64,000 nucleotides of DNA, from the NCBI GenBank assembly GCA_045837725.1, contig JBEWZL010000101.1, positions 372,001 to 436,000 of the forward strand, read 5' to 3'. Under the pieces are notes generated by a model. The model worked only from the letters and a program-made list of their open reading frames with translations, was not told the DNA's origin and searched no databases. This document shows, piece after piece, positions 2,193-64,000 of the stretch (within the stretch, counting starts at the first letter, position 1; each line of letters opens with the position of its first letter). The stretch comes from Vermamoeba vermiformis. Its lineage: Eukaryota. Position numbers and translations under genes: made by a program.

Positions 2193-3785
2193 TTATTCGT
2201 CAGCAACGCGAATTTGTTCGTTAACAGGGTTGAACACCTTAGGAGCATCTAATTGAAAGTATTATTAGCACCAAGCTCTAATTTTGGACCCGTGGTGCTC
2301 GGCACACTTCTAAACGTGCTACTTACTCAAAGCGTTAGAATTGCTGATGTCGAGCACTTGGGCATTCTTCTCATTGCCGGCCTTGATTTGCTCGTTGATA
2401 GGAGTGAAGGCTTTAGGAGCATCTACGCGAGAAAAAATGTTAACAACCGGGTCCGATCCGCCAATTCTCGAATGCTATCTGCCATGGTCAGAGACTTACT
2501 CAAAGCGTTGGAGTGGCTAATATCGAGCACTTGAGCGTTCTTTTCATTACCAGCCTTAATTTGATCGTTGACTGTGTTGAAAGCCTTGGGTGCATCTGTC
2601 AAAGCAAAATTAGCTTCTAATCTTGACTAATTTAAGGTTGTGGTTTCGGGCAAACAGTTAATGAATGGCTCAATTACTTACTGAGAGCAGTTTGGTGGCT
2701 AACGTCGAGGACTTGAGCGTTAGTGTGCTCAACATTGTGGATTTGAGGGTTGAGAGGAGCAGCACGAGGCGATTCTATTTTGAAACGTTCGATTAGCATT
2801 TCCTATTTTGCTAGTCCATAAAAAATTCGAATTCCAAAATTAATTTCGTATTTTTAGCCTTCTGTGAAGTAAATCTTAACCACAGATTATTTTGTGTATG
2901 GATTCGATCTAAAGATGACGCGTGACAGATTTCCGTCTTTGGTTTTCGGCATTGAAACTTACTAACGGCATTGTTGTGGGCCATATCGAGCACTTGGGAG
3001 TTCTTTTCGTGACCAGCCTTAATTTGGGGATTGATAGTTTGATCCTTCAAGTTTCTGGCATCTGAAATTGAAACGGTGAGCACGCAGATCAAGCAACAGG
3101 TACACTTCTATTGATAGATTAACTTACTGATAGCATTAGAGTGGTGCATATCGAGAACTTGGAGGTTCTTGTGTTCAACATTGGCGACTTGAGGGTTAAC
3201 AGTTTGATCCTTCAAGCCATGAGCAACTAATGAAGAAAAAATAGCAAGTAAGTAAAATAAATATGAAACACACGTAGAAATAGTCACAATTTGTTTTTTG
3301 TTGTTTTTTGCGAGATTTACCTTTGGCGTTGGTCAAGGACATAGATCCGTCGACAGTAGTTTGAATTGGCTTATCACGAGGAGTGTGCTTGTTGCACCAA
3401 ATCTTGTTATTGACGGCAGTGTAAGTCTTCAAGTTCAAAGCCAAACCGCATCCAGGTTCCTCGCCTACAAAAGAATAATTTAGCCGTTGGAAAAAAGATT
3501 TTTTCGCATTATTCAGAAATTTTATGCTAACAATTATTAGTAAATTAAGGTCATTATTTGTTTTTCACTTTTGTTGTGCTAGTGTCCGAAATAAAATAGT
3601 TGATTTTTTGCCTGCTTGATCTACTTACATCTGAAGCAGAGTTTGTGATATTGACCGTTGGAAGTAGTGACAGCCTCGTTGGCGTAGACTATGCACGAAG
3701 AGTGTTAGAAAATCTCGCAGGTACAGTTGAGTTTTCGCTTGTCGTTAAACATACCAGTCTTTTGGCAGATGTTGCACTTGGACAT
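2193..3785 (-). CDS. LIM-domain protein with about 5.5 C-terminal 31-33 aa repeats
   Basis: Spliced translation: MSKCNICQKT/VYANEAVTTSNGQYHKLCFR/CEEPGCGLALNLKTYTAVNNKIWCNKH (LIM C2HC-C2CH), then repeats such as NAPKAFNTVNDQIKAGNEKNAQVLDISHSNAL. Stop TAA at 2193-2195. Confidence 0.85.
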
Positions 3786-4898
3786 TTTGAGTTAATGAAG
3801 AGGTGTGGTGTTTGCTTAGTGTGTGTAGGTTAAAAAGCGACGTTTGAAAGAACAAAAGATTTGATTCTGCTCGCGGTATCGCCAAAGATTTTTTGTATCT
3901 ACCAGGGCTGACAGATCTGCATAACCGTTGCTTGGTTTCGATAACTATCTTTTCAAATATTAAAGTTCATAAGTGCAATGGTATTAATCCATTTTTGGTG
4001 AATCCTTCTTAGTTTGGCCAAATCTAGCAGGAGCTGCACTTCGAAAATGGCTCCTGGCAAGCTAATATAACCTGTATGGCTACACAACACACCTAAATGA
4101 TTTTTAATATTTTTAGGAATATTTTTGAGACCGCTGAGACCGCCCAGAACCTAGATCTAGGTACTGAATTTTGCCCGGTAGTACTGGTGTTCTATGAACC
4201 TACTTTACACCATATCTCGTGTACATTTATTTTCAAAGGCAAGTACTATTATCTACTTCGACGAGACACCTCAAACTAATCACTATCGTTGTTAAAGGGT
4301 TCGTGAAGATGCTGCTTTGACGAGAGTTCAAATTAGTAACGCAAATACTGCCAGCCGAATTGAACTAGCAAAACCTGTTCTACGAATCTCTGAGTAGTAT
4401 TTTCAATTAATACACTGCCTTGGATGAGCTGCGGATGGAGATCTGAGGTTGGCTTTCAGATCTTTCGTGTTACTCATACCTAAGCGATGTACGGATTATA
4501 CTTTATGTCAATGGTTTCACGTGGATCTGTTCAAATGGTTGCTCAAGCTAGATCCAGCTCTCGTGGCTGGGGTGGTGGCAGATCAGACCCTGACTCGTCC
4601 GTGACACATGCCAACCAGAATAACCGAATGCATTTTCTGACATCGCACGAAGGTGTGAAACAGCCGCTGAGAACATTTGGGATGGTTCCAAGGACACAAT
4701 TTCGAATGCTACAAAACCTTCTACGAAGTTCCTCACACTTCCTTTTATGGAAGTCTTCGCGAATGATTTTTTTTTGATAAAACCGAATCGAGTGACGTCA
4801 TATTCAATCAATAACAGAACATAGAACAACACAAGTTCTATTCAAGTCCAAAACAACTTCAACAAAAAACTAAATCCGAATCTCAAAAGTTCAATAAC

Positions 4899-6036: not shown

Positions 6037-8047
6037 TTAAAAACACTTTCTGATGGATATATTAGGACCACTCTCGTCATATTCTACTTTTGTTTTCCAA
6101 TCTAACGGAGTATTAAGTATTGAGATACTACCTTGATAGATGCGATCCACAACTTTTTTGCCAGTAATGGTCGCTATTGGATTTTGTTCCATAAGTTTTG
6201 CATACGAACTCATGGGAACCACAGTCGCTTCTAATTTTACTATATTTGGTAATTTTTCGAGTATGCGCCAAGACGAGATATTCAAAGCGCAGTTTCTTAC
6301 GTCAACGTGTTCTATATTCAACGAGTCCTTAATCTCTAGTGTACGGATGTGGTGATTGAAAAGTACCAAATGTGACAGCTGATGACATCCGGTGATTTGG
6401 ATCGATTTAATGTCTTCGCTGTAGAACATTTGCAGGTCCTTCAAATTGGTCAAATTATTGAAATGCATCTCGTTGCCTTTAATCTCGCATTGTTTAAGCA
6501 CGAGCCTTGTCAGTTGTGATAAAATTGAGCTGGGTACCGCTTCTAATCTTCGGACTTTGACCAGCTCCAGACTTCTCAAGTTCGTTAATTGAGCTAATCT
6601 ATCAATTAAATCATATACGACTTGTGTTTGTGGTGCTTCGCATTCGAGTGTCAGTTGTTCAATGTTCGTCATTTGATCAATCTTTGCAAAAATATTGTGG
6701 TTGGTGATTTTCACTGAATCCAAGTTTCCGTGAATTCCGTTCTTGATTTGTGCGTTGCTCGTAAACTCTGTCAGCTTGTGATGTCCAGTTATATTAATTT
6801 CTTCGATACCCCTGCGACCCAAAAATTTTAAAACTTCCAAATTTGGGCAATCGATGGTGATCGAGTTCAATCTGAAGTCTGAAGTGATTAACAAAGTTTG
6901 CAGACTCGTTGACGATATTCTGTCATGTGTTGTTCGATAGTCGATTATTAAGTGCAAAAATTGCAATTTCGAACATTTTTCCAATAGCGTGTTAGGCGGT
7001 GTGTTCATCAAATGTTCTTGAATATACAAATGGGTCAATTGTGGCATATGCGGCATTTCTTGAACGATGCTGTCAATCTTGAAGTTAGGTGGTATATTTA
7101 AGCGTTGTAATTGCGTTGCTAATTTCAGCACGTGGGTCAAGTTGTCGCTGAGAACATTGAAATTTGGCGTATATCCGGAGTTAAATCTTGTGTGCTCAAA
7201 GTAATGCAATCCTAATGACTCTAATCGCGTACTGTTCTTAATCAAGCTATAAAACGAGTCCCATGGCTCGGATATCTTGCCAACCGTATTCAGTAGTATT
7301 GCTAAACTCTGTCGATCCAAACATTAAAATCGTTAAGGCAGTCAGATATCGTTCAATATTACCTTTAAATTCTTAGAATGATTTTTATCGAGGATTCTAA
7401 ATATTTCTGGCCAAAAATTGACGTAATCGAAGTTCACGCAACTTTTCGGCAAGGGATCCAAAAGTAGATGCGCTAATTCCTCTGTAAAATCGATATTAAA
7501 TATTGAAATTATATTGACAAAATGGAGTTTAGTATATTTACCTCTTATGGAATCATTTCTAGCGAGATAATCCGTTCCAGGTGGTAAAGAAAGGGATGTA
7601 AGGCGTTTAACGCCTGTAGGATAAATGTCGTTGAAAAATATCTTCTCATCGCCATCATCATATTTATATAATCGCTTTGGCAGTCTTAGTTTCCTCGCAT
7701 GTGGAAATTTCTTTAGCGCCAAGGATGCGAGCTGAAAATCGTCTTGCAGAACCAGTTCGTTTAGCATAATACAATTATCAGTCTAGTATAATTGTATTAG
7801 TAAGTTTTTTAGCGAATAATTTTGATTTCAACTGACACATCCGATTTTAAATTTCTTGAACCGTTAAGTAAAATTCGTATTCGTTGCTAATAATATTGAT
7901 AAAAATACGTACAACTTCTTTCCATAGTTTTGAAACTTGAGCGCTTCTGCCTAAAGATACCAACGGCATCTGCCCACAAATGACACTCAGCGTGTCCTTA
8001 ATTCGAAGCGCTAAAGGCGTCTCGAGCGATGAATTGTTTTCTTCCAT
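6037..8047 (-). CDS. F-box-like N-terminus plus leucine-rich-repeat protein (several introns)
   Basis: First exon DTLSVICGQMPLVSLGRSAQVSKLWKE is F-box-like. Long last exon has LxxLxL repeats (LTNLRSLEL, LTNLKDLQM, CPNLEVLKF). Confidence 0.7.
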
Positions 8048-16454: not shown

Positions 16455-18466
16455 ATGGATATACTACCGCTCGATGTCTGGCCCTTAATTGTTAGTTTCA
16501 TGAATGCCAAAACAAAACGGCAGATGCGACTCGCAAACACAAAATGGTTCAATACTATCAAATATAATAAGTTTAAAATATTTTTTGCACGATCAAAGAA
16601 TATTCAAGCCATTGCAGAACGATTATCAAAATATTCTTGGCCGATCGAGATTCACTTTTTAAAACCCAAATTTGACAGACCATTGGACTTGATTAATAAT
16701 TTACCAATACTTACCAACCTCAAAAAAATATCGGCAAGTGATGTGGATGAAATCGAAGATATTAGCGCGGGCGCAATTGCAGCAGGCAATCGACGGAGGG
16801 ACCGAAACAGCGAAACGAGCGAGATTTGCAGAAATTGTATGTTCAGTTCGAACATTGAATTAAGAACGAACACCACAACTCATATTGGTTATTAAATTTT
16901 TATTTTTATTTTGTATACTAGGTGCGTGTCTAGGCGTTCGTAGGGCCCAACCATCGATACGGGGGCTGTATGAACGAAATCTAGCACCTAGCCAATAAAC
17001 CTGAATTATCGCCCGCGAGTGTAGCGAGTTAAGTCCCGGCAGATCAATGGCGCCAACTTTCAACACTCACCAATATTGAACACTGGAAGCTTAGAGAAGA
17101 ATATTTACCACAAGATTTATGGCTAAAATTCACTAAATTGACTAAATGGGGAGTTACGTTACCCGACGAAGAACTTGTGCCGATCTTGAAGCGGATGACG
17201 AACTTAAATTCATTAAGCTTGTATTCCGAGGACTCAAAAACATGGCCTTTTGCACTCACATATAGCCCAGATAAATTAACAAGACTAAACATCAGCGTTT
17301 CAGAGAAGCAACAACATGGCAGTGAGATCTGGGCCTGTTTAACGAATCTGAAAGCCTTAGTTTATTCCGAGAATATTAACGAAGGATACAATGATATAAA
17401 GCTATCGTTTTTAACGGTGTTGACGATTCGTCAGTTAGATTGCAAAAAACTTCCGTCTTTAGCAAGAAACACGAATTTACAGCATCTGTCACTCTACTGC
17501 CAAAAGTGGTCCACAAGCAAAACTCACGATTTATCAAATTTAAAAAATCTGCGAATATTATCGATAGTTTACCCTCGTCAACAAAAGCCTGTTCAATTCA
17601 ACTTTTTGGTGCAACTGCTACAACTCGAAAGTTTCGCAATCACGGCCTCGGATATGACAACAGATGTGTCAAATGCATCGGATGTATTATTTCAGTACTT
17701 GCCATATTCTTTGAAGAGACTAAAATCGGATCTTGATTTGGATGTGGTCAAAATTACGCATCTGACAAATTTGGAAGAACTCGTTCTATACAAAAATTGC
17801 ATTAGTAATCAACACTTGACAGCGTTATCAAATATGACTCGTTTAGTTGTCGATCAAAATAATGTAATGCAAGATTGGAAAGTTATTGGAAAATTGACGC
17901 GATTAATCGAGCTCGATTTGGCATGCACTTCCGACGAAGACGAAAATGTTGACGATAATGTACCTGATATATCAAGTTTAACCAACCTTATTACGTTACG
18001 TTGGACATTGAACGAGTTTCCCATCCACAAACTTGCAGCGGTGGCTTATTTGACAAAGCTAGAAGAATTGTTTATCTCTGCGCACAACGAATCAGATCCA
18101 TCATTTGTTAATCAATCCGACTTTTTATCGATATTAACAAATTTGACACGACTATCATTACAACTAAAGACTAGCGATAACACATTATGGCAAAACATTG
18201 CAAAATTGACGAATATCGAATCGCTCAGTATACACTACGTAGATCACGATGATAGATTATTGACATTAACAGCGTTCAAGAATTTAACTGAATTGACCAT
18301 AACTTCTGCTGCGAAAGAATTTACCGGCCAGCATTTTACTGCCTTAACGAATTTACAAGACATTTATTTTCGAGGTGATAGTACTCAATTGGTGCATAAG
18401 AACGAAGACTTGAGGAAGAAAATGCCTTATTTGTTAAGGTATTCGTACTTCGTTCCTTTAGTGTAA
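16455..18466 (+). pseudogene. F-box/LRR paralog of the 11563 gene interrupted by a 272-bp insertion (pseudogene, or rescued by splicing)
   Basis: Colinear with the 11563 protein up to ..EIEDIS(A) at 16766 and again from ADQWRQLSTL at 17039. The intervening 272 bp has no counterpart in the paralog and shifts the frame. Confidence 0.8.
16767..17038. mobile_element. Short (about 270 bp) insertion of unknown origin
   Basis: Absent from the paralog. GC-rich ends (CGGG...CCCG), possible 1-2 bp duplication, and an internal GTATGT...poly-T-TAG intron-like segment. No long TIRs seen. Confidence 0.55.
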
Positions 18467-22418: not shown

Positions 22419-24030
22419 ATGAAACGACGAACTGATCAACGGGAGACGGAAGACTCAGATCAAGAACTAAAAAAATCTAGATTGACCAATTTCCACGTAA
22501 GATCGCTCTTATAATATTTGCCATTCATATCATAATTTATAACAATTTTTGAAGGATTTTCTGATTGACGATATCATGAAAATTATTTTCTCGCTTCTGG
22601 ATGAGACTTCTCGAAGACACGTTCGTCTTGTCTGCACCAAATGGTTCAATCATATCAACTACTCGGTATTCAACATTGGAGCTATTCTGCCATCAGAGAT
22701 TGAAGAAGTGGTTCGAGTGTTTGGTCGATACAACCAACAGATCGAGCTTCACTTCAAACAAAAGAGCCCCGTGCTACGTAAACCAAGACAAAAAGAAGAG
22801 TATCAACGAGTTGAAGAGCTGTCAAAGCTGACGAACTTGTCTGCGCTAACCATGGACGGCTTTTACTATCATCAGTATCTGGCTTTTACGAATTTAACAT
22901 CGCTAAAGAGTTCCACAATTGGCGATCCGACGATGAAAACCCTCACAAAGTTAAAGAAAGTAGTGGCGGACGATATTTATTGCGATAGCACTGTGAATTT
23001 GGCTCAATTAGAAGAATTGTCGCTTACTGGCCAGTGCAACTTTGGCGGCAGAATTATTGCTCGAGCATTGAATGTCAAACACTTGACATTACTCAAAACA
23101 GACTACCCTAATTATTTAGGAGCAGGCGATACTTATTGCAAAGAAGATTTTAGACTATTGACGAAGCTTGAATCATTGACGGTGGATGACATGCCGATCG
23201 CGTGGGATCAGCTGTCAACAACTTTGACACGTGTCATCGTAATGTCCAGGCAGGAATGGAGTGGCACCCAGCACGCTGTCTTTCAATCGACAAACTTGAC
23301 CAATCTTCGGCACTTATCTATTCAAAACAACCTTGATAACTTGGAGATTTTTCCTTATTTGGAAAGTCTGTCCTTGAAAAACTTCAATACCTTATGTCAA
23401 CAAATATCCTCTTTATCGCACTTGACATCATTGAAACTCAGTCAATTTCCTGTTTTAGATGCATCGATGGATTTAATCAGCGAATTGATTCAACTTTGCG
23501 AGCTTGAATTGAAACCCTCTCCCACTTACCTAAAGGCATTCGATATGCAATATTTCCAAGAATTAACGAATTTGACTTCATTAGAAATGCCATTGACAGT
23601 CAGGCCGAGAAATATTGACACTTTGACACGATTGACAAGGCTTCAGACATTAACTCTCAAACTTGAAGACAACAAAACAGATTTTCTGTACACGCTGACA
23701 AATCTTACAAGACTAGATATACAATATGACGAGTCAAGTATTCCCTTAAACTTAAAGTCATTGACGAAGCTTCATGAACTTTCCACGGAAACGGAGAATA
23801 CTTTCACTGGCTTTGACACCTTGGCAGCGCTAACAAAGCTCATATTTCAGCAAAAAATCAAAGACAGTGACAGCCATTGGCATAATATATCAAAGTTGAC
23901 AAATCTTATTGAATACATCGAAGTCGGTGGGTTCGTTTCCCAAACGGATCCAGATCGGCTGACACAACTGATAGTTTTCAAGCACTTGACAAGATTAACA
24001 ACCGCTCTGTATTGTACGGCAAGACCTTAA
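22419..24030 (+). CDS. F-box/LRR protein with short basic first exon; C-terminus appears truncated
   Basis: Exon 1 MKRRTDQRETEDSDQELKKSRLTNFH, intron, then DFLIDDIMKIIFSLLDETSRRHVRLVCTKW (F-box) and LTNL repeats. Ends about 50 aa earlier than the paralog at 25276. Confidence 0.85.
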
Positions 24031-25275: not shown

Positions 25276-27058
25276 ATGAAACGAAGGCAGAGCCACATTT
25301 TAGAAGCTTCACCCGAAGCTGATCGACCAAACAAAAAGTTAAAAACCAGTGATCAATCAAATTTCCAGGTAATAATTAGTTTTATCAATTCTCATATTTG
25401 ATTTACCATATTTAATATTTTTGAAGGATTTTCTGATCGATGACATCGTGAAAATTATTTTCTCATTTCTGGATGAGACTTCTCGAAGACACGTTCGTCT
25501 TGTCTGCACCAAATGGTTCAATCATATCAACTACTCGGTGTTCAATATTGGAGCTATTCTGCCATCAGAGATTGAAGAAGTGGTTCGAGTGTTTGGTCGA
25601 TACAACAAGCAGATCGCGCTTCACTTTAAACAAGAAAGCCCAGCTTTTTTTGGCATGAATAGCAGCGAACCATTATTACCAACAAGAGACCAGTCAACAA
25701 TAGAGCCATTATCAAAATTAACCAATTTAGTGGCATTATCAATACCTCACTTTAATGACGCGTTTTTCGTGTTGACTAATCTCACCGCGCTCAAAAGTCT
25801 GAACAGAATTCAATGCAGCACACTACAAACATTCACAAAATTAAAGAATTTGACAATAGGCTTTATTGACGGTGATTTATCGACCAATTTACCGCAACTA
25901 GAGGAACTGTCAATTACGCAGAGCGGAACTAATGGTGCACGACTTGCGGAAGTAGCTCCGAAACTGAAACACGTGACGCTATTAAACTGTGCTTATGAAA
26001 CGAAACTTCCAAGAGATAACTGTACCTTGCCTTCGCTAGAGTCATTATACGTGGACAAATCATGGGGCTCATTCGGTGACTTACCTGCTTTGACACGTGT
26101 CACAATTGAATTTGACAGTTTAAGCTTTGCGCGCCATCGAGTGGGACATTTAACGAACCTTAGACATTTAAATATTGGAGACAATATCAAAGTGGCAAAT
26201 TTTCCTTATTTGGAAACTTTATCATTGTTCTGTAGAAAACCGAAGCACGTTCAACAGCTGACCCAACTTCAACACTTAACATCATTGTGTCTATTCTATG
26301 GCACTCTTTCACTAAGTGAGTTGCACGTCCTTAGCAAATTGACTAGTGTTCGTAATCTGGAACTTCAACCGACATGGTATAATAGCAATGGAGCAATGGA
26401 TCTGGCCTTCATTAGTGCTCTAACGAACTTAACTTCATTCAAAATAACACTCCCAAGATATGTGAGTGGCACTGATAGCTTGAAATATCTAACAGCGTTG
26501 AAAGAGCTGGAGTTTGAAAGTCTTGGCAGAATTGTCGACGGATTCGTTGACAGCTTAACAAACTTGACAAAGCTAGATTTACGATTATGGCAAACACCTA
26601 ACTATACACATAATTTGGGTAATTTAACGAACCTAATTGAACTTTCGTTAAAGACCTACAACCTGGATCGAACACTCAGCAATAATTACAGCGGATTCGA
26701 AAATTTGACGCAGCTAACGAGACTCACTTTTGGTAGTATTGTTGACGATACGCATTTGAATAGTATTTCAACGCTGACTAAGCTCAAAGAATATGCTGAA
26801 GATGCTGGATTTGACACAAGGACGGATCGTGATCGACTTTCACGATTGACAGCTTTCAAACATTTAACTAAACTCGTCACTGGATCAATTCTGGATATTA
26901 ATTATGATTATATCACCTCATTAACGAAGCTGCAAATACTGAAATTATTCGGAGTTGATAACAAACTTTATTCCAAATTGACACTATCTTTGCCGTTTAT
27001 AGCGCAACAAGATAATACTCCGCTCAGTTACTTGGTTGAAACGTCTAATAAATATTAA
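25276..27058 (+). CDS. F-box/LRR protein with short basic first exon
   Basis: Exon 1 MKRRQSHILEASPEADRPNKKLKTSDQSNFQ, intron, then DFLIDDIVKIIFSFLDETSRRHVRLVCTKW and a long LRR region. Confidence 0.88.
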
Positions 27059-27281
27059 TAGTGCTTCTATTTTCAACGGAATAAAATCTGACTTAAAATA
27101 TAACGCTTGTTCGCTCGGATTTTACTCTGTCGTATTGATTGATTAAGATTAAATTTATGAGCATAACAATAAACTATGATGAATTTATGTTTATGTTAGT
27201 CTAGTTACTGGAGCAACTTCTAGATCTAGAAAATAATTTACTTGCGGGCAAAACACGAAGGGATCCTTGACTTCATCGTGT

Positions 27282-30200
27282 TTATTGGATACTAGGACTT
27301 ATGCTAGTAGGTTCTTTCCGACACATTTTAATTTGATCAACAATTTGGCTCGCCGATGGTCGTTTTTTTGGATCTTGTTTGCAACAGTCCATAAGAAGCT
27401 GCCGCAACTTTGTATCTTTAAACTTTTCATTAATTTTCTTAACACGTTTATCTTCGCTACTGCTCGGTAATAATGGCTCTCCGGTAAGCATTTCAAAGAG
27501 CACAACGCCGAACCTGACCAAAAAAAATTCTGAGAATTTTTTCGTTGATGAAATATTTAACTTACGAATATATATCACATTTCTCGTCGTATGGGTCTTG
27601 GCTTAATACTTCAGGGGCCATATAATTGAACGTTCCGATAACATTAACAGTTTTCTTTTCGAGTTCTTTAGCTGTTCCAAAGTCCGCAATTTTTGCTCGT
27701 CGGCCATTATAGAGCTAAATAATGAATTAATAAAAATAAAAATAAATAATTTTGCATAGAAAATATGTTACCAGAATATTTCCGGTTTTGATGTCTCGGT
27801 GAATAACTTTCGGCATCCTTGAGTGCAGGTACATCAAGCCCTTAGCGACATCAAGAGCGATCTGCATTGAATCTGGTATTGACAACGTTGATTTTTTCTT
27901 CAAAAAATCTTCGAGAGAACCGTCCTTTAAGTACTCCATGACTAAAACCACGTCCGCTGTGTTTGGATCAATTGAAACTCCGTACGACACAACGATATGC
28001 TTGTGACGAAGCCGCCTAAAAATCAAGTTAAAATGCTGTTTGACATTTTGACACTTTATGGGAGAAGTTTGAGCGGCGTGAAAAATATTATGACACTTTG
28101 ACACGTGTCACTTTTTTTGCTGGAGTTTCACTTACGTAAGAGCCTCTGCTTCCTCCGCGAATATTGTAATGTTAGACATTTCACTTCCGTCTTTCATTTT
28201 TTTCAGCGCTACGTTTTGTCCGAGCCATTTGCCTTTGTACACTTGGCTGAAACTTCCCGCACCAAGTGCCATCTTGCGATCAATTGTGATCTGCTCGAAA
28301 GGAATTCCTTTAAACTTGTTAATTGGTGTATGATTAATATAAGTTATTTATAGTGTTCTTACCTGATTGGCTATTAACGACATTTCTCACGACGTTATGT
28401 AGCAAAGAATTAAGTTGTTGTTTTAACGCTGCATTTTCTTGCTCGTATTGAGCGATTTTAGTCTCCAAACTGTTCCATTTCAAAAGACTTAGCGACTGTG
28501 CTGTAATGAATTTGTTGTTTGCGGAGCTCGCGAATTGCATTCTTGACACGTGACACACGACATCGATGCGCCAGTATTGTTCGACAATGATGAGATTTAG
28601 GCACGGCATTTGCGCCGCACTTGTGTTTGCAATAATATTCATCTTTTTGATCTTTTTCATGAATTCAAAGTGCAGTAGTTGATCGGCTTTGAGACTGGTC
28701 ATGCCAAGTGTCAAAATGTCAAATGTGACGAAGATATTTTTCTCTTTCAAGATCTTCGATTGGAATAACTTCAACTGAGTTTCTAATTCTAGCTTTGTTA
28801 AGACTTTTGGATCGCATTCAACAGGCACTCCTTGCGTGATAAATTGACCTGAATCTCGCAACGCCAGATCTATATCTTCAATGGATAAGACATATGCTTC
28901 TTTCGCTTTTGATATAATGAATGCATCACTCAAAAGTTTTTCGATATCTGCAGGAGCGAGATCTCGGTCACGAATTCCTGACTTGCGCTCTCCGGCTAAT
29001 TCTTTTCTGCAACCTAAACGAAATTGTTACTTTTGACACTGTTGACACTTTGACACTATAAACAGATTTGAACTATTTCAGTGAGCCAAAAAATGAGGCC
29101 TAAAGTACGCACCAGCAAGTCGCTCGGCAAGTTTTTTAACGCTTTCTGCAGTCAGATTATGTTCGTAACTTTGTAGCAGCAAAAGCAGCATGTAATTGAT
29201 CATAGACGGCGATGAAATCTTCGGCCAGGCAATACGAGCGAATTTTTGTTCTTTAGAATTGTCAAGTACGATATTTGAAGTTGCTGTAGAAACATAAAAT
29301 CAACTAGTTAGAAAATAATTATCAACTACTACTGAAATTAAATTCGTACCTAGAACTATAATAGAGCCGGGAGTAATATTGAATTCATTAATGAGCCTGA
29401 AAAATTCCCGAATGCTTTTCTGTTGTCTCGGATCATCGTGCTGAATGAACATTTTTTCCACGTCTTCGATTAAAATTGTTATTTCTACGCCTTCTTTTTC
29501 GTGAGCAATTTTCGCGAAATTAAATAAAACTTTTGGATTCAGTCCCTATAGAAACATAAAGGACGGTCAAAAACTTTGACACCTGTCATTCAGAGTGTCA
29601 ACACCATTTACCTTGTTATCAGGATGAAAATCAGCAGGTGATAGAGCTATGTAAGGCCGGTCCATATTTTGCACTGTTAATGGCGTCAGTTTAATAAACT
29701 TAAAAAAAAAATCGACTTCCGTCGAAGCGTACTTAAAAGTTTAATAGCCATACTTCCCTAATAAAAATATTAGAATATATAGTTAAATTTTGTAGTGTAT
29801 ATACGTACTGGTCTGTATAATAAGACACTAGTTGGATATCGACCCTCGTTAAATCCACCTTCGAACCAGGCAGACAACATCATCGCATTTACATCGGCGA
29901 TTAATCCTTCAGCTCGCGCATTTTCCTGCGTAAACATATTTGCAATGACTAATTCTTCTTTGGAAGTAACGCATCGGAGTAACTTTTCTTGTAATGCAAA
30001 TTGAGTCACCGTGTCTTTCATGAAAACTGACTGACAGTATCCTGCGTACACTTCTGGCGCTATTTTTTTCGAGGAATAATTAAATAGCTGTTCTTTGATT
30101 GTATTTTGTTTTTCTATCCTTGCTGCATCTGATTGCGAGAGTTTGTCGAGATCGAATTTAATCAGTGCATTTGTTTCGATTGAAAGAGCCTTCATTATTT

Positions 30201-31011
30201 TTGCTCCATCTGAATTTAACTGATTTGCTACAAATAAACGATTAATCTCGATGCTAATCACCATAAAAATAGCTAAAAATTGCGTAACGAAATTTCGAAA
30301 TTTTCAAATCGTTTGTAATCGCCTAACCTACCTGTAAGATTCAATTTCGATAATGAGGGATTCATTTGTAATGCTTGGGCGATATATTTAATGCCATCAA
30401 GGTCTATTTCATTCGCTTCAAAAAATTAGTTAGTCTAATTTCATAAGGAGTGCGTACTTACAACTTAAATCCAAGCTAGTCAATGTAATATTGTGTTCTA
30501 ATGCTTTAAAAATTGCTCGAATGCCTTCTGATCCAATTAGATTGCCTTTCGGTTTTATGTTAGAATTGGATCGGCTGTTACATGTTCTATCTTACCACTT
30601 AAATTCAGCTCCGTTAATGTATTATTTTTTTCTAAGCACTCTGCTATTATTATAGCGCCCTCAGCTCCGAATCTCTTTGCTTTATCGGTGATTATTCCGC
30701 TCAGATCTAATTTGGTCACGGATGTTGAATTACTTTCGAGAAGTTCTGAAAGCTTTCTTAGAACGGCTAAATCTATATCAATTGGTCCAAGTTCACATAT
30801 TGCCAGCTCTGTAAGGCTCTTATTACTGACAAGATACTGTTCGAAATGTTGGATGTCGGTTGTGGTTCTTATTTTACCTGCAATATATTTTTTAAAATAA
30901 ATAACATGGTTGTATAAGATGTTTCTTACGAGATAGATTCAACTTTGATGCTGCCGGATCTTGCAAAAATGGCCGAAGGCTGCGGGAGCCTCCTATTAAG
31001 TTCTGGGACAT
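27282..31011 (-). CDS. RI-type LRR + degenerate AAA+ domain + coiled coil + TKL-type protein kinase
   Basis: LRRs: FGAEGAIIIAECLEKNNTLTELNLS, IGSEGIRAIFKALEHNITLTSLDLS. AAA-like: VLLYRP/GSMAIKLL, ITILIEDVE, IIVL/ATSN, LAPADIEKLLSDA. Kinase: LGAGSFSQVYKG, VALKK, HRDIKTGN, IADFG, GTFNYMAPE. Confidence 0.82.
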
Positions 31012-31464
31012 GGAAATGTAGTCAAACTGAAATAACTATTATTATTACATTTAATTACTAAATAACGAGATAAATGGTTTTGAAGCGAACGGATTTACAG
31101 TAATTCAATTTTTAAAATTAGCGTTGCTGTTTGCAGTATTGCTGAAATGAGCAATTAAATACCTGGATACTGTTTCGTATTATAGGAACTATTGCAAAAT
31201 TAAATGGCCAGCTTTGACATTACCTTCTAACTTAGAGCTCGATCTAGCCTTCCGCAAAGTGCTTAGTGCGGGCAGTGCTCGAACTATGTAATAATGATAT
31301 CAAAGATAAAAATTTATCCATGGCTGTGTGAGAGCTCTTGTCTAGTCTATGACAGGCGATAAAATCTCCGAAAGTGGTATTTTTAGCCACAGATCAGCAC
31401 ACGTGTCGGCAAAAATCGCCTAGTTAATAATAAGATTAAATTTTATTAGTAATACAAAATTGTT

Positions 31465-32509
31465 TTATTTGTTCTGCTGTACTAATTGAGCAAGGTACTC
31501 GCTGACAGAGATCGGCTTAATGTGAGCGTAGAACGGGTCAGTTAAGTTATCGAGCGGGCTTAACGCCGCACCGTTAGTCTTCAAAATGAATTTTTGAGCT
31601 CCGAGCGAGAATTTTAACATAGCGTTGTCGGTGGCTTGGATTTGTTGATCGAGTGACTCAAGCGTGGGCACGTTCTTCTTCCATTCGGAGCCTAAGTAAA
31701 ACATATTAATAACTGAGCATAATATGCCTAGTGGAAATCCCTCAAAGAAATATTGTGCGTACAAAATTGGATCCGCTTGGATCACGCATGTTTCAAGACT
31801 TACCGGTCAATTTCTCGAGTTGAGCAACGACATCATTCCATTTAAAAGTCTCGGCACCGAGTCTGACTGTCTTGTTCTTAGTATTAGGGTTCAACAGGAT
31901 CTCAGGCACGAGTCGGGCAATGTCGTCAGTGTGAATGGCTGTCATGACTGCGTCGCCGTACAAATTGATTGATTGCTCTTTAACGTTGACGCCAGCGAAT
32001 GGGCTGAACAAGTTGTCCATAAACGGGTTATTAACGACGAAAGTGTAGTCCAAGCCGAGCTTGTGGATCTGCTCTTGGGCGGCCTTCTTCAAATCCCAAG
32101 TCACGGTCTGACCCTTTGGCATAGCCTCGGTGTCGTTACCAAATTCAGAGGGAATAATGCGTTTGACCTTCGAGTAAGCCGAGGCCTCGATAAGATTGGG
32201 CTGCAATCCAAGAGCTTCTTTGCCGACGACTGAAATGACGACATCTACTCCTTGAGTAGCCTACAAAATCGTCAATAATTATGAAAATATTTTTAAATTT
32301 GTACATACCTTCTTGAGAGACTCTACATCGCTAAGATCGCCTTCCACGATTTTGGCTCCCTTGGATTTGAACTCGTCTGTTTTTGGGCTTGGTTTTCTAG
32401 CTAGTACAAGAACTTCAAATTCCTTCTTTGCCAAAAATGCGTCAGTAATTTTAGCTCCGAGGAAGCCAGTAGCTCCGGCAATTAAAACTGTTTTGAGTTG
32501 GGTTGACAT
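31465..32509 (-). CDS. NmrA-like / isoflavone-reductase-like NAD(P)-binding protein
   Basis: TVLIAGATGFLGAKI, VEGDLSDVESL, QPNLIEAS..VKRIIPSEFG, TDDIARLV. Confidence 0.9.
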
Positions 32510-32864
32510 CTGATCGGATCTTGTCTTAGATTCGTTTCTGTTTCTGTTGTGTTGTAATGTGTATGACCACGTTAAATAATATAATGAACTGCCGTGAAAA
32601 TTTTTATGGTTAGTGCTTTGTAATCGTTGAGAACATTCTGTGCGGGACCGAATATTCTCACCAGGGCTAGGAGACAACGGGATCCTAAAAAGGAAACTTC
32701 TCGGGCGAAAGTTACGAGCACCAGATATTTCCAGTACATTCGCAGCGATGAGAACCATCTGGAGGAAACCGATAACAAAAATAGTTCTATTTATTTACCT
32801 TGTCAGATTCGAATCTCCAAAAACTCGATCCAACCCTCTGTTGAGCTTAAAGTCTAGAATCTAG

Positions 32865-54962: not shown

Positions 54963-57900
54963 TTAAGATGAAGATGCGCCTGTTGTTGACGGACTTGATC
55001 CCGACGAGCTCGATCCACTATCAGAGGATGACCTGTCTTCTTCTTCTGGAAGCTCATGAATAGTACTATTATTAATATTCATAGAGGCCATGGCAAGGTT
55101 ATCTTTTGACGGCATTCCTTTGTATTTGGTTCCTTCTTGCGATCCAGGCTGCGAAGCATTTTTCAAATTCGTACTTGTATCGATTGCTGAATAAGGACCT
55201 TCGGCGCTTGAACTACTAGGTGGTGCGTCTCCGTAAGTAGATTGCGGAGGTTGTTCTTCCATGTTCACGGCGGATGTGCCGCGCAGATCTTCTCCCATTT
55301 CTTCGTTCAAAATCTCGACGAGTTCTTCGAAGGTCGGTCTATCCTTAGGGTCCTGCAAATATGGTTTAATGCACTTGCCTAATAAGGAAATCGAGTTTTC
55401 GTGAAGACTTACGGGAGCCCAACATTTGAGCATTAAACTCTTCAAAAATTCGTCCTCGCAAGTTGAGATGTCTGGATGCATGTTGATCTCACGAATTTTC
55501 AATGCCAATTCTAGCAAGTCCCAGCCTTCATAGGGCTCGCGGGCGTATATCATTTCCCTATTGACACGAGTCAGTACATGTATCTCGAGCGGAGATTTTA
55601 TGTCATAAAGTACGTACCACGCAGTAACACCAAAACTCCACACGTCAGATTTGTTACTGTATTCTCTCGTCATTAAGGACTCAGGTGACTATATAATACG
55701 TTAGTATATGTATTTGATATTATTGTTGAAGAGACGTACCATCCATTTGACAGGACCGATCGTGTTGAGAGTTTTACCAGTATTATCGATACCGACGATA
55801 CGCGCCATACCAAAATCCTATAAAATTATCGCAAGTAAGTAACTGAGTATCAAATAGATAAATTTGTACTTACAGAAATCTTTGGGACACCTTGATCCGT
55901 CAACTAAAAATTAAATTTGTTAGAATTATTATAACATGTTTTTTAAGTATATAATTAATGTAGCTTGAGCGTAACGTACCAAGATATTTCTGGTGGCCAA
56001 ATCTCTATGAATGACGTTCTGTGAATGCAAGTGAGACATGCCGCTAGCAATACCGCGTAACAAGTTGCGAATAGTTTTGCCGTCCAAAGAGTAACTCTTC
56101 AAATAGGTCTCCAAACTGCCCTTGCTGCAGTACTCCATGACCAAATGGAACTTTTCTTCGTGCGTGTAAACACCGAAAAGTTGGACGATGTTTGGATGCG
56201 GTCGCAGCTCACTTTAAAACACATTAGATATGGAACTATAAGTATTTTTTGTAATATATACGCTTAAAAATTCATTTTCAGTGGATGTGGTCTTAAAAGG
56301 AAAGAAATAAGTTAACAATAATTCTCAGAAAAAGCTCTTGTATTAACACTACTTAAATACTTACGCCATGACTTGAGCTTCTTTAATCATTTCAGCGCTA
56401 GTCTTGCTAGACTCATTCTGCGTTACTTTGACGGCCACCTCCGTAACTCGATTCAATTTGCCTCTCCAGACCACACCAAACGAGCCCTGACCGAGCTTAG
56501 TGAGCAATAAGACGTCGTTGGGCGATAACTCCCAGCGATTGGATTTGTTGCTGCCATTGGCAACAACGTTTTCAACACCTGGAATCGGAACGGAGACTAA
56601 AATTCCAAATTAGGAAATGGCTGCAATATTCGAGAAGAGGGTCATATATGGATCTTACCATAATTGGTATCTTCGAGCGGAAGTTCATCGTCTTTCTTTT
56701 GATTTTTCTTTTTCTTCTTTTTCGGTTTGACGACCACGAAGAAAACGATCAAAAATATTCCGACGCCAACGACCACAGCAATAGGAACAACTATGGCAGC
56801 AATTATTCCGCCGGTTAGACCCTGAGGTGTCGCAGTCTCATTCTTTCGCGAGAAAAGAATTCCATCCAATGGCTGAACGCTCCAAAGTGCTTCAATGGCG
56901 ACGGAAAAATTCGCGGAATAACTCTCGGGGGTGCCCAAGCACACTTTTTTCAGGCACGTGACGTTAATGAGCTCATCAAATGATGGGTCGTAGTTGGGAA
57001 AACCGAAGAATGCACCAGTGTCAAATTGCGTATCTGTGTTAGGCACAGCCGTCTTCAACAACACGTCGTAAAAGGACTTACTTCCGGAGTCAGTCCAGAA
57101 CTGCAAAATGATCACGTGATTAGTTTCATGAATGAATATGATAGTGCCCGGCAGTCTCGTCAAATTGATATGCCTGAGCTTATAATTAAATAAATAGGAT
57201 GAGTACGTACGGTAGTGCTGCCACAGGTCTCAACGCATCTAGCGTGCGCACAGGTCACGGAGTCTAACGAAGGAGCAAGATGTGTGAGTTGATTTAAATG
57301 GCCAATTGGTACGTAGGCTGTGGGACATTGTGGGGCCCTATTAAATACGAAATTTAGTTTCGAATATCGGGCTATTAAAAGTTTTGGATCTCATTAAATT
57401 GGCTGAAATTAATTGAGAGTATGAAATATAAATGAAAATTACCAAAATCCTCCATCGAGCCTAGCGTTACTGTTCGCGTCGATCCAGATCTGGGCATAAG
57501 ACAAGGGGGACGCCAACAAGGGTTTGTGACTAGGATATCTCGGCAATGCAGAGTCTGCTTCAATCTCCTTTACGACTGTATTGAAACATCGGTGAGTGCT
57601 GTAAGAAAGTATACAAAAGTATATCGTAGCTTACATTCTAAGTTCAAATTGAAGCTTGCGGTGATGTTACACGCGTCACCGGTACGTTTGTAACCATCAA
57701 ATTCGTCGTACCTCCAGCACGTTATATTTGTATCGACTGGACTACCATACGACGCCCATAAAGAGGTGAAGCTCGCTAACAAAAAGATTAGGATCCAGAT
57801 CTTGACAAATTGATTTGATTAATTTTTACCTGGTTGAACTGGTGCAGTTTGAAGAGTGTTGTCAAAGCCAAGGGAGCTATTCATATACGTTTGTAACGCG

Positions 57901-59454
57901 GTAATCATGTTTTCTCTAATAGATCCGTCTTCGATTAAGAACACGTACGGATCCAGTTCTAGAGCAATCGGCATCGGATTTTTTTCTATGGATGTTTTCC
58001 AAAGAGCATAATTTGTCGATTTATCGCCTCCCACGGCTAAATAACAATTTTGTTAAGTATTTTTTTCTAGCGAAAAAGATCCAGTACGCGCATATCAAAA
58101 ACGAATCAAAATTCTCTTCAACTAAGAAAATACTATTGCTTACCATATAAACTGACACTAATACCAATGCTAGTCAATTTCTGGTAATCCGTACTGGCAG
58201 TTTCATCGCTAATCGAATACGCAAATCGCGCCGCAATTCTCATAGCATTTAAAATGTCCGTAGAAGTGTTGAGCAATTGTCCGCGATTGAAGAAAGGTAT
58301 ATACGCAGAAGCTGTTATTCTTCCTCCAAAAGTTGCGTTTCTGACGTAATGAGTTCCGTATTTGGTAATAAAATTCAAGTAGTCGTTGTAATTGTAGCTC
58401 GTGGGTAAGGCTTTAACGTCGTCCATAAATGACTGAGAGAGGTTTGCGCGAAGCATTGAGGCTTTGAATATTGCAATTTCGGCTAAAAATGTAACGAGGT
58501 CAGTTCGTGCGTACATTGGTCTTTACAAAAAGGTGAATTTTAGGTTATATGTGCGTAGTGTAACAAATAATAGAATATTTTTAAAGGTCATATTAATTTT
58601 ATATTGTCATTGTGCTACTTACCGCTGCTGGTGTAAACCGTCGATCCCAAATTCATAATATTTCGGCTAACCATATTAGTATATCCGTTATTGCCAAATC
58701 CAACCTATCAACGTTATGTAAGTACTCGATATACTCAATATTCAGGAATGAATTTTGCGTTCACGTACTTCTGGAGCTAAATCCACGATAGTGACATCTT
58801 CCAGCAACCTCATACTAAACTCTCTGCGATAAATTATGTTAGAAAGCATTCTAAATGAAGAATTAATTGTTTCTTTCGGTGCTTTTCGGAAGTAGTGTCC
58901 GGTCTTGGTGACACTTCGACTCACAACGACACGGATGTACCATGATTTAAAATTTGCTGGATTAAAATACACCGAGTATTTACCTAGGTGTCCTTGCCGT
59001 ATAAAAGTTAAACGTATTGTTCTCGAATGAGAGAGTTTCGGTCGGAGTCCCGTCGGTTGTAGATTCGATTTCGTAAATTAACGCTTTATTCCACGTTAAG
59101 GATACTATAAAATATAAAAGTAAATATTATCACTTACTTATATAATATAATATCATTACAAATACTAATTCTTAATTAATTGTTCATGATTCAAACTTAA
59201 ACAGATCCCGCGTTCAAAAATCGCGTGAGTGCGTTGAATTATTTTTAATACTTACAATCGTCATCGCTTGTTGGTCTTAGATCACCTATATTTATTGTCA
59301 TAATTTGTAAAATTAAGAAGGCTTGTTTCAATTATTTACCGGTCACCAGATCAAATCCACGACCAATGTACGTGTAGACATTTTGCAGTTGGACCTGAGC
59401 AAGGCACACTTGCACTAATATACAAACTACCACTAGCGTGTATAAATATCGCAT
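54963..59454 (-). CDS. Single-pass receptor tyrosine kinase with extracellular MACPF domain
   Basis: Signal peptide MRYLYTLVVVCILVQVCLA. MACPF: YIGRGFDLVTG, LSQSFMDDVKALPTSYNYNDYLNFITKYGTHYVRNATFGG, VGGD..WKTSIEKNPMPI. TM GIIAAIVVPIAVVVGVGIFLIVFFVVV followed by poly-K. Kinase: LGQGSFGVV, VAVK, HRDLATRN, DFG, GPVKWM/SPE, SDVWSFG. Confidence 0.88.
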
Positions 59455-62551: not shown

Positions 62552-64000
62552 ATGGAGCAACTTAAAGATCAGATCAGAGAGCAAGGAGAGGCTTTGCGAA
62601 AACTCAAAGCTAATAATCCAGAATGGCATACAGATAAGAAAATCTTAGAGCATATTTGGAATTTATTGAATTTGAAGAGCAAAGACCCAGCTTTGAACGA
62701 AGAAGTCTTTGGAACTGACAAGGTAAAATAAATTTAAAATCTCAGTTCAGAAAATATTTAATTAAATTTAAAGACCGGCAATATGATAAATATATTAAAT
62801 TAAATCGTGGCAGCATAAATTTAATATTTTTTTGCATTATTTTAGCCAGCGAAGCAAATCAAGATCCGTTGGTACGTCGTAGACGACAAGAAAAACAAAA
62901 TTCGCTATCAAAATGTATTCAAAAACCGTACTTTTGTCACGGGCAAAGAAGTAATCGCTTCAATCAACAACTATATGCACTCCCTCGTCCAACGAAAGAA
63001 AGACCAACTTCCAAAGCACGTGACGGGAGATTTCGTTAAAATCGAACACGTGTCCAGACCCGTCGCTAAGGCGGCAAAGGTCTTGCGCTCAATTACAGAA
63101 GAAGACATGTTCAGATTGCCTGCAGTCTTCCCTGGTCCTACGTTACAGCCTGAAACAGTCATAGAGTTTAAGGTCACTTTCCCTGGCCCTGCTTATCACT
63201 TGACCACGCCTGAAGCATATAACCTTCATAGACCCGAGATCGTTGACGCAGGTACGTAATGACGGCAATACTTGATATTTCTGAAGCTCGATCTGATCCG
63301 TGTAAATGTAGGTGTTAACTTGTTCGAGAAAGTGTTGTACAAGAACGTCGATGCAGTCATTGCACGATCATTTGCAGCTGGTGTATCTCAGAGTGTACTG
63401 ATTTCAATTGACGCTCAAACTAGTGCCACGTCAGTCGAGATCTGCAAGAAACATTTGCAAAGCTTGTACGCAACGGCTGGTGTCCATCCTTTGTATATTG
63501 GCAATGCTCCAGTAGCTCGCGGAGACGAAGAGGAGAAGAAACAGATTGAAGAGGATGAGAAGGCCCTGCAGTCCGCGCAACCTGAGGGTGCTGAAGCCAA
63601 CCCGAAGGCCGAAGAAAGTAACAATAGCAACGAGAAGCCTAAAGAGAAGGACTTGAAGACTGAATTGAACGCCATCACAGCTCTCATTAAGCACAATCCC
63701 GAGTATGTCGTCGCTGTCGGTGAGATTGGCTTGGACTTTAAGGACAACTTGGCACTTGGTAAGTTGAATTCAGATACTTTTACGCTCGTAAGCAGGGATT
63801 GACGAGCTATATAATAGAGTTGAGAGAGACGCAAAAAGTGTGGTTCGAAGAGCAACTCAAGTTAGCCGCTGAGTTGAAGTTGCCCGTGTTAATTCACGAG
63901 CGTGAAGCTTTCAGAGAAACGATTGACATCCTCCGAAAGTACAGATCTCAGTTACCAACCGTCGTGATTAACTGCTTCACTGGCTCGCAAGAGGAAATGG
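62552..64000 (+). CDS. TatD-family nuclease with N-terminal WHEP-like domain (3' end beyond window)
   Basis: N-terminus LKDQIREQGEALRKLKA. TatD motifs IVDAG/VNL, YATAGVHP, VAVGEIGLDF, FEEQLKLAAELKLPVLIHER, VVINCFTG. Confidence 0.85.

Follow-up and report, generated by a model that had tools for sequence, protein, structure and literature searches.

Signaling proteins that place a P-loop nucleoside triphosphatase (NTPase) between a repeat-built sensor and an effector, among them the NLRs and the ROCO/LRRK proteins, are central to immunity and disease. To our knowledge, every NLR or ROCO protein uses a STAND or Ras-like switch as this NTPase. A review on LRRK2 gives the ROCO layout as leucine-rich repeats (LRRs), Roc GTPase, COR and kinase (PMC10508695). 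For the Torsin activators LAP1 and LULL1, an AAA+-type fold has been described that is conserved, lacks canonical nucleotide motifs and makes protein-protein contacts (PMC4358337). Here, we analyze a 64,000-nt window of Vermamoeba vermiformis DNA (assembly GCA_045837725.1, contig JBEWZL010000101.1, positions 372,001 to 436,000 of the forward strand; all positions below are those of the window unless another sequence is named). On its minus strand, at 27282–31011, lies a gene whose predicted product joins N-terminal LRRs, a degenerate AAA module and a C-terminal protein kinase. The literature that we searched, by titles and abstract openings, yielded no LRR-AAA-kinase architecture; within that scope, the combination of LRRs, a degraded AAA domain and a kinase, which we encountered in only a few related organisms, was not found described elsewhere.

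The window DNA is eukaryotic, with about 38% G+C, and the minus-strand open frames of 27282–31011 alternate with short stretches that end in GT..AG. In our manual model they form one gene of 14 exons, whose coding sequence (CDS) of 2853 nt runs from an ATG at 31011 to a TAA stop at 27282–27284 and specifies a product of 950 aa; all 13 coding introns are GT-AG, and they measure 46–120 nt. By tblastn, the model is collinear over its full length with P0001, a relative of 948 aa from JGI/IMG that carries the name "hypothetical protein"; the largest exon was the query of the word-index search that retrieved it. An initial annotation of this DNA, made from its letters, had set the limits of the locus at 27282 and 31011, and these are the exact CDS ends of the independently built model; the peptides quoted there are likewise all found at the minus-strand positions given for them. 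The joints of introns 1, 8, 11 and 13 (4 of the 13 coding introns) are seen spliced in contigs of sequencing run X1, which are 95–99% alike and come from a run whose kind we guessed to be RNA. Spliced X1 contigs are present at both ends of the gene. At the 5′ end, one of them joins 31026 to 31163, skipping 136 nt bounded by CT..AC on the plus strand, and continues to 31248. RNA-seq runs X2–X4 contributed 9, 3 and 13 reads with a partial fit, most of which fall on a repeat within intron 11, and an Rfam search of 27000–31400 returned two chance-level matches only. Neither a signal peptide nor a membrane span is evident in the protein. We conclude that 27282–31011 is one expressed-type gene of a eukaryote with short introns, and that its product is cytoplasmic.

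Relatives of this gene are few. P0001 belongs to a 90% cluster of five full-length sequences, each of 948 aa, on contigs of 4447, 4313, 4329, 4223 and 3137 nt. We infer that these contigs are assembled spliced transcripts, because a 2847-nt open reading frame (ORF) on a 3137-nt contig leaves no space for some 880 nt of introns. Three more sequences of the P0001 lineage (P0002, P0003 and P0005), exon-sized ORFs on contigs of 418–428 kb, run into unrelated residues where window exons 5, 8 and 12 end. A scan of 241 million metagenome records gave 15 loci, two of which, L001 and L002, cover the non-kinase part, the other 13 being kinase-only. L001 is genomic, has the exon layout of the window and is 63% identical to the window protein; it represents a third lineage beside the window and P0001, and these three are all that are known. 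Over the whole protein, the window and P0001 are 67.6% identical (637/943 aligned positions). An exhaustive phmmer search of 1.84 billion representatives with the middle region of the protein gave 3 matches, all of them fragments of these lineages, and together with the word-index searches it returned only the P0001 lineage and fragments. Neither the phmmer search nor the metagenome scan turned up a copy with an intact Walker A motif, so that the homolog search proposed in the initial annotation delivered relatives but no intact one. The precomputed database annotation of P0001 includes the family PF27087.1, which appears in no paper that we searched and may already describe part of a P0001-type protein.

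These relatives also bear on the smallest exon of the model, a micro-exon of 25 nt at the position of the Walker A motif, which follows directly on the VLLYRP that closes exon 5 at 29809. An open frame alone is insufficient to fix this exon, because 27 frame-keeping GT-AG solutions exist in the window (13 with a single intron and 14 with two). Only the splicing 29809 / 29757–29733 / 29673 reproduces the sequences of the relatives. In the genomic DNA of L001, a 25-nt exon lies at the same place (3588–3612) and reads GSTAVKIL; in 5/5 full-length 948-aa relatives, the residues encoded by the micro-exon stand between ...LLYRP and QNMDRPY.... The micro-exon had been proposed from the outset, and its recurrence in the L001 genome and in all five intronless ORFs bears the proposal out. 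The same ORFs speak against separate transcripts for the LRR and kinase parts, which had likewise been placed in one gene. A point against both conclusions is that RNA reads of the window's own lineage cover neither the micro-exon nor the span from the LRRs to the kinase; the support for the exon comes from the comparison with relatives.

Between the LRRs and the kinase, where the initial annotation had noticed the order of a classical AAA domain, sequence comparison indicates that the middle region is a diverged AAA core and lid of the classical clade. That it derives from an AAA domain seems to us very probable. One line of evidence is profile comparison with FtsH. An alignment of the three lineages (P0001, with the window model and the L001 part after splicing) was compared by hhalign with a profile of 79 FtsH AAA domains, collected from Escherichia coli and 80 loci, from which one locus was dropped by an ORF filter and one row by a gap filter. 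The two align over 111 columns, from beta1 to sensor 1, with a score of 31.6 (E 0.0015, probability 16.5%). Column shuffles of the query score 15.0±2.4, with a maximum of 21.9 (0/143 reach the observed score), 8-column block shuffles score 16.0±2.4 (0/37), and the reversed query scores 13.8. The lid segment alone scores 20.2 against the last lid helices of FtsH, compared with 11.9±2.2 for its shuffles (maximum 19.7, 0/200), so that core and lid each lie beyond all shuffles separately, and the proposed AAA order holds. Single sequences behave similarly: the window protein alone scores 22.9 against the FtsH profile (shuffles 14.4±2.1, 0/100), P0001 alone 25.0 over 123 columns, and L001 alone 20.6. 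When 73 E. coli ORFs are ranked by hhalign, including more than 20 other AAA+ proteins, FtsH comes first (27.0, 111 columns), and no other ORF aligns over more than 100 columns; the runner-up is aligned over 26. Against E. coli FtsH alone, the family alignment A3 gives E 0.042 over FtsH residues 182–325.

Other searches lead to related proteins. In the Pfam searches, P0001 stands in for the whole protein and the window was tested as 11 single exon pieces. Pfam AAA (PF00004) matches P0001 at E 0.012 over residues 319–428, covering positions 14–127 of the 131 in the profile, with 16.5 bits against a gathering cutoff of 21.2. The family profile built from A3 finds 5 chains at E≤10 among all PDB sequences, and 5/5 are the AAA domain of Drosophila spastin (E 0.31–0.47), in alignments that span Walker B into the lid. 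Of 30 matches from a feature search of the ESM Atlas, at least 18 fall in PF00004 clusters, with scores of 0.92–0.95; the ten best family-bearing matches share the PF00004 family or clan, a degree of sharing that one third of shuffled proteins also achieve. In low-confidence AlphaFold2 models, the order of secondary structure fits an AAA domain, with strand-helix four times and then four helices.

The residues on which an active AAA protein depends are largely replaced. The GK[ST] of Walker A is missing in 3/3 lineages, which read RPGSMAIK (window), RPGHLAIK and RPGSTAVK (L001), and the segment between beta1 and beta2 is in all three 4 residues shorter than that of FtsH. At Walker B, the hydrophobic strand is kept and the acidic pair is ED (IEDV) instead of DE, again in 3/3. 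NNKG, which is DNKG in the window and one residue shorter in L001, stands at the pore loop opposite an MFVG that is invariant in 79/79 FtsH domains. Sensor 1 reads TSN in two of the three lineages and TSK in the other, and hhalign sets the S opposite the sensor Asn of FtsH. Opposite RPGR of FtsH, whose arginines we take to be the classical fingers of the second region of homology (SRH), the lineages carry KEKK or KEQK, with Lys at both positions in 3/3; the FDR or FAR that follows is kept. By these alignments, the AAA module is without the determinants of ATP hydrolysis and substrate threading in the three known lineages. The earlier label of a dead AAA domain is in keeping with this, as Walker A, the order of Walker B, both arginine fingers and the pore aromatic are lost in all three, and the swap of DE to ED that had been singled out recurs in each. 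A lysine (AIK) and the acidic pair ED do survive near the old active site, which counts against a complete loss of function, and some residual nucleotide binding by the module is possible.

Loss of the motifs has been accompanied by retention of the sequence around them. Between the window and P0001, the AAA core is 68% and the lid 65% identical, and the kinase 67%. For the window versus L001, the ratio of nonsynonymous to synonymous divergence (dN/dS, Nei-Gojobori) is 0.14 in the core, 0.105 in the lid and 0.17 overall, values that are rough since dS is near saturation (proportion of synonymous differences 0.65–0.72), a further point against reading too much into them. Judged by these figures, purifying selection acts on the AAA module, which matches the kinase in conservation.

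The flanking domains are more readily recognized. The kinase has the VALKK lysine, HRDIKTGN, DFG and APE, and with these catalytic motifs intact it is apparently a working enzyme. PK_Tyr_Ser-Thr or Pkinase was matched on 4/4 of the window kinase exons, and the P0001 kinase exceeds the Pfam cutoff with both (Pkinase E 1.6e-53, PK_Tyr_Ser-Thr E 2.6e-46). Its best PDB matches are CTR1 (the nearest chain), TAK1, IRAK4 and Src, and the TKL group is assigned from best matches only. At the N-terminus, LRR_6 matches P0001 in 2 stretches (E 3.4e-11); on the window exons it reaches E 0.004 on exon 3, a 27-aa piece, and E 0.1 on exon 2, both below the cutoff. The LRR region is 66% identical between the window and P0001. 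In animal NLR genes, LRRs are encoded by one exon per repeat, and exons 3 and 4 of the present gene resemble them: each is 84 nt long, in phase 1-1, and encodes one 28-aa repeat of the ribonuclease inhibitor (RI) type. Since each of these exons amounts to one repeat, duplication of exons could lead to the gain or loss of repeats.

The remaining segments have fewer matches. A helical linker between the LRRs and the AAA core is the most conserved segment of the protein, with 78% identity to P0001, and no Pfam family matches it at E≤0.1 on the window exons. The region after the lid has no Pfam match on the window exons or on P0001, and residues 530–690 gave no usable ESM Atlas match. Directly before the kinase lies a segment predicted to form a long helix or coiled coil. 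No other part of the models attains its predicted local distance difference test score (pLDDT) of 66–81; the segment is 71% identical to P0001 and gives weak bZIP-type Pfam matches on the window exons (E 0.03–0.15). Features of the gene and its product are collected in Table 1.

Table 1. Coordinates of the gene at 27282–31011 and of the parts of its product.
Feature	Position in window	Strand	Basis or remark
5′ untranslated region	31027-31248	-	intron 31027-31162 plus upstream non-coding exon to at least 31248
Exons 1-5	31011-30930, 30877-30596, 30545-30462, 30415-30332, 30227-29809	-	manual model
Exons 6-10	29757-29733, 29673-29612, 29545-29350, 29283-29113, 29013-28363	-	manual model
Exons 11-14	28307-28136, 28015-27772, 27714-27566, 27513-27282 (including stop)	-	manual model
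RI-type LRRs, about 5-6 repeats, aa 1-205	30145-31011	-	Pfam LRR_6
Helical linker, aa 206-300	29860-30144	-	helix in each of the two low-confidence models
Degenerate AAA alpha/beta core, aa 301-430	29228-29859	-	exon 5 end, micro-exon, exons 7-8, exon 9 start
Walker A position	RP 29814-29809 and GSMAIK 29757-29740	-	hhalign register
Micro-exon (exon 6)	29733-29757	-	25 nt, GSMAIKLL plus 1 nt; carries the degenerate P-loop
Pore-loop position	in exon 7 (29673-29612, which also carries RPYIALSPADF)	-	hhalign register
Walker B position, EITILIEDVE	29485-29456	-	hhalign register
Sensor 1, TSN	29281-29273	-	hhalign register; IIVL/ATSN spans intron 8
Arg-finger position, KEQKFAR	29254-29234	-	hhalign register
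AAA lid-like helical region, aa 431-525, with basic insert of 15-20 aa	28844-29227	-	lid-only hhalign, spastin alignment
Last lid helices, LAPADIEKLL...LSIEDIDLAL	28960-28859	-	peptide read from model
Region after lid, aa 526-640	28499-28843	-	63% identity to P0001
Predicted long helix/coiled coil, aa 641-685	28364-28498	-	AlphaFold2 model
TKL-type protein kinase, exons 11-14, aa 686-950	27285-28307	-	Pfam and motifs

How does this protein compare with the described systems? Like the ROCO/LRRK proteins, it has N-terminal LRRs, a central module derived from a P-loop NTPase and a C-terminal kinase of the TKL group in one cytosolic polypeptide. Unlike theirs, its central module belongs to the classical AAA clade, which shares only the P-loop fold with Ras-like GTPases, and has no intact nucleotide-binding motif; its LRRs, moreover, are of the RI type (LRR_6). 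Roc and COR were sought as marks of ROCO membership, and neither is matched at E≤1 on P0001, on which 8 Pfam families were found, or on the window exons. Membership of the NLR/STAND group was considered as well, and P0001 has no Pfam match to NACHT or NB-ARC at E≤1; on the window exons, a faint match to the NACHT-associated NCAB2 (E 0.2) sits in the kinase tail and was discounted. With no Roc, COR or NACHT detected, "ROCO-like", the term of the initial annotation, describes an analogy of domain order only: the order LRR, AAA-derived module, kinase is supported, and ROCO membership is not. With the NLR/STAND proteins, the present protein shares RI-type LRRs and a module of the AAA+ superfamily, and signaling driven by oligomerization is the natural analogy. 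It differs from NLRs in that its LRRs stand at the N-terminus and not at the C-terminus, its effector kinase is fused in cis, motifs of a nucleotide switch are absent, and the module aligns best with classical AAA domains (FtsH, spastin).

With classical AAA proteins themselves (FtsH, spastin/katanin; PF00004 plus AAA_lid_3), the module is collinear from beta1 to sensor 1 and once more over the final helices of the lid. It departs from them in that GK[ST], DE, both SRH arginines and the pore aromatic are gone, and in its location, with LRRs on one side and a kinase on the other. LAP1 provides a precedent for an AAA+-like fold that is conserved and nucleotide-free, the likeness being drawn from described properties. 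LAP1 lends an arginine finger to its partner, an active ATPase, whereas here Lys stands at both finger positions, a partner ATPase is not known and a kinase is fused to the module.

What might the module do? With moderate confidence, and from the sequence features above, we favor the reading that it is a pseudo-ATPase retained for a structural role and most likely couples the LRRs to the kinase, through self-association or by an autoinhibited hold, together with the coiled coil. The LRRs would bind a partner or ligand. The AAA-derived module would link them to the kinase, either by self-associating or by holding an autoinhibited conformation, again with the coiled coil. Engagement of the LRRs would then bring kinase domains together, allowing trans-autophosphorylation. 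Such a scheme resembles the use of the central NTPase in NLRs and ROCO proteins, but would operate without a nucleotide cycle. A bolder version, drawn by analogy and close to the oligomerization scaffold suggested in the initial annotation, has the degenerate AAA domains form a nucleotide-free ring or filament that gathers LRR sensor kinases into a signaling platform. It would amount to an independent invention of the NLR/ROCO logic, made in a poorly sampled eukaryotic lineage from an AAA domain of the unfoldase type whose motor function is gone; we consider this unlikely. The coiled coil predicted before the kinase offers a simpler path to self-association than an AAA ring.

A comparably small chance goes to the idea that the AAA-derived module is an intramolecular latch or spacer, holding the LRRs over the kinase, and that the coiled coil alone dimerizes the protein. 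Arginine fingers sit at the interfaces between AAA subunits, and here both are replaced; the long helix before the kinase is also the sole confidently predicted element (pLDDT 66–81). Yet Lys keeps a positive charge at the finger positions in 3/3 lineages, and core and lid are strongly conserved. Less likely still is that the module binds nucleotide in a non-canonical way and acts as a slow switch, in the manner of STAND or Roc domains. In its favor are a Lys that is conserved (as AIK or AVK) within the shorter P-loop segment, the conserved ED at the Walker B position and a polar S/N at sensor 1 in 3/3 lineages. Set against these, all three lineages lack GK[ST], have a loop/helix shortened by 4 residues, have lost both SRH arginines and have an inverted DE, and no relative with an intact Walker A was found among the 1.84 billion representatives or in the metagenome scan.

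Several results weigh against the AAA origin on which these readings depend. Pfam AAA falls short of its gathering cutoff on P0001 and appears on 0/11 of the window exon pieces at E≤1, the pieces being short. A phmmer search of the PDB with the middle region found 0 chains at E≤10, the family HMMER profile gave a single 9.7-bit chance match on the E. coli chromosome, which was not FtsH, and BLASTP of P0001 against FtsH aligned nothing in register. Neither AlphaFold2 model is usable (pLDDT 38.8 and 39.4), and Foldseek, run from these low-confidence models, returned 0 matches at E≤0.001; since the models are unusable, the Foldseek outcome is uninformative. With no confident three-dimensional model and no Foldseek match, the AAA fold is inferred from sequence. 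The AAA likeness might accordingly be seen as a chance pattern in a lineage-specific region of helices and strands with some other fold, given unusable structure models and database matches none of which is strong by itself (E 0.012 for Pfam AAA, E 0.3 for spastin and a probability of 16.5% for hhalign). We regard this as very improbable: four independent approaches arrive at the same family in the same register, core and lid each score above all shuffles and occur in the correct order, and FtsH, which ranks first of the 73 E. coli ORFs, is alone among them in aligning over more than 100 columns.

Least probable of all is a wrong gene model, in which a pseudogene, or adjacent LRR and kinase genes, would have been read as one: no own-lineage read bridges the whole gene, the micro-exon has 27 alternative splices and X2–X4 coverage is almost nil, but an uninterrupted frame across 14 exons, whose splice sites fit the consensus, and the single 948-aa ORF of 5/5 relatives oppose it, as do the exon structure conserved in L001, the overall dN/dS of 0.17 and the spliced contigs at both ends.

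The repeat in intron 11 is part of a wider pattern in this DNA. The motif GTGTCAAARTGTCAA, often beside GTGACAC, has 11 copies in the window, against 0.47 expected. Four lie in the gene described here, at 28040–28054 and 28090–28104 (intron 11), at 29042–29056 (intron 9) and, on the plus strand, at 28708–28722 inside exon 10; the others are at 9367, 23615, 45847, 46383, 46391, 48609 and 61424. The motif is also found in L001, at about 3770–3795 (intron 7). Copies are mostly intronic, and the longest introns of the present gene contain the motif. RNA reads of another organism (X2–X4) match 28037–28110 with unrelated sequence on both sides, which marks the motif as a dispersed element; the flanks of its copies do not align. 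A regulatory site and a tiny mobile insert are both candidate explanations, as is something else.

Other genes of the window also encode LRRs or kinases. A cluster of long single-exon LRR genes occupies 6037–7323 (minus strand) and 17033–18466, 22543–24030 and 25376–27058 (plus strand). F-box matches occur in two of the cluster genes, narrowly exceeding the Pfam cutoff in one and narrowly missing it in the other. Only 224 nt separate the end of the gene at 25376–27058 from the stop of the gene described here, the two being convergent. On the other side is a two-exon gene for an NmrA-like NAD(P)-binding protein (31793–32794, minus strand). Farther away, a multi-exon gene at about 54963–58522 (minus strand) encodes, in succession, a MACPF/perforin domain (Pfam E 1.1e-14 and 3e-07), a hydrophobic membrane span with a run of Lys behind it, and a kinase of the Tyr/Ser-Thr type (E 1.5e-23); from these matches its product looks like a MACPF-transmembrane-kinase receptor, an unusual combination. 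A fragment of a TatD-type DNase lies at 63263–63802 (plus strand).

Finally, if the AAA-derived module of this protein does assemble or latch the kinase, the scaffold role of a central module would be separable from nucleotide switching. In that case, the few AAA pseudoenzymes on record would be joined by a new class. With three lineages, the family itself is tiny, and it marks an under-sampled group of eukaryotes.

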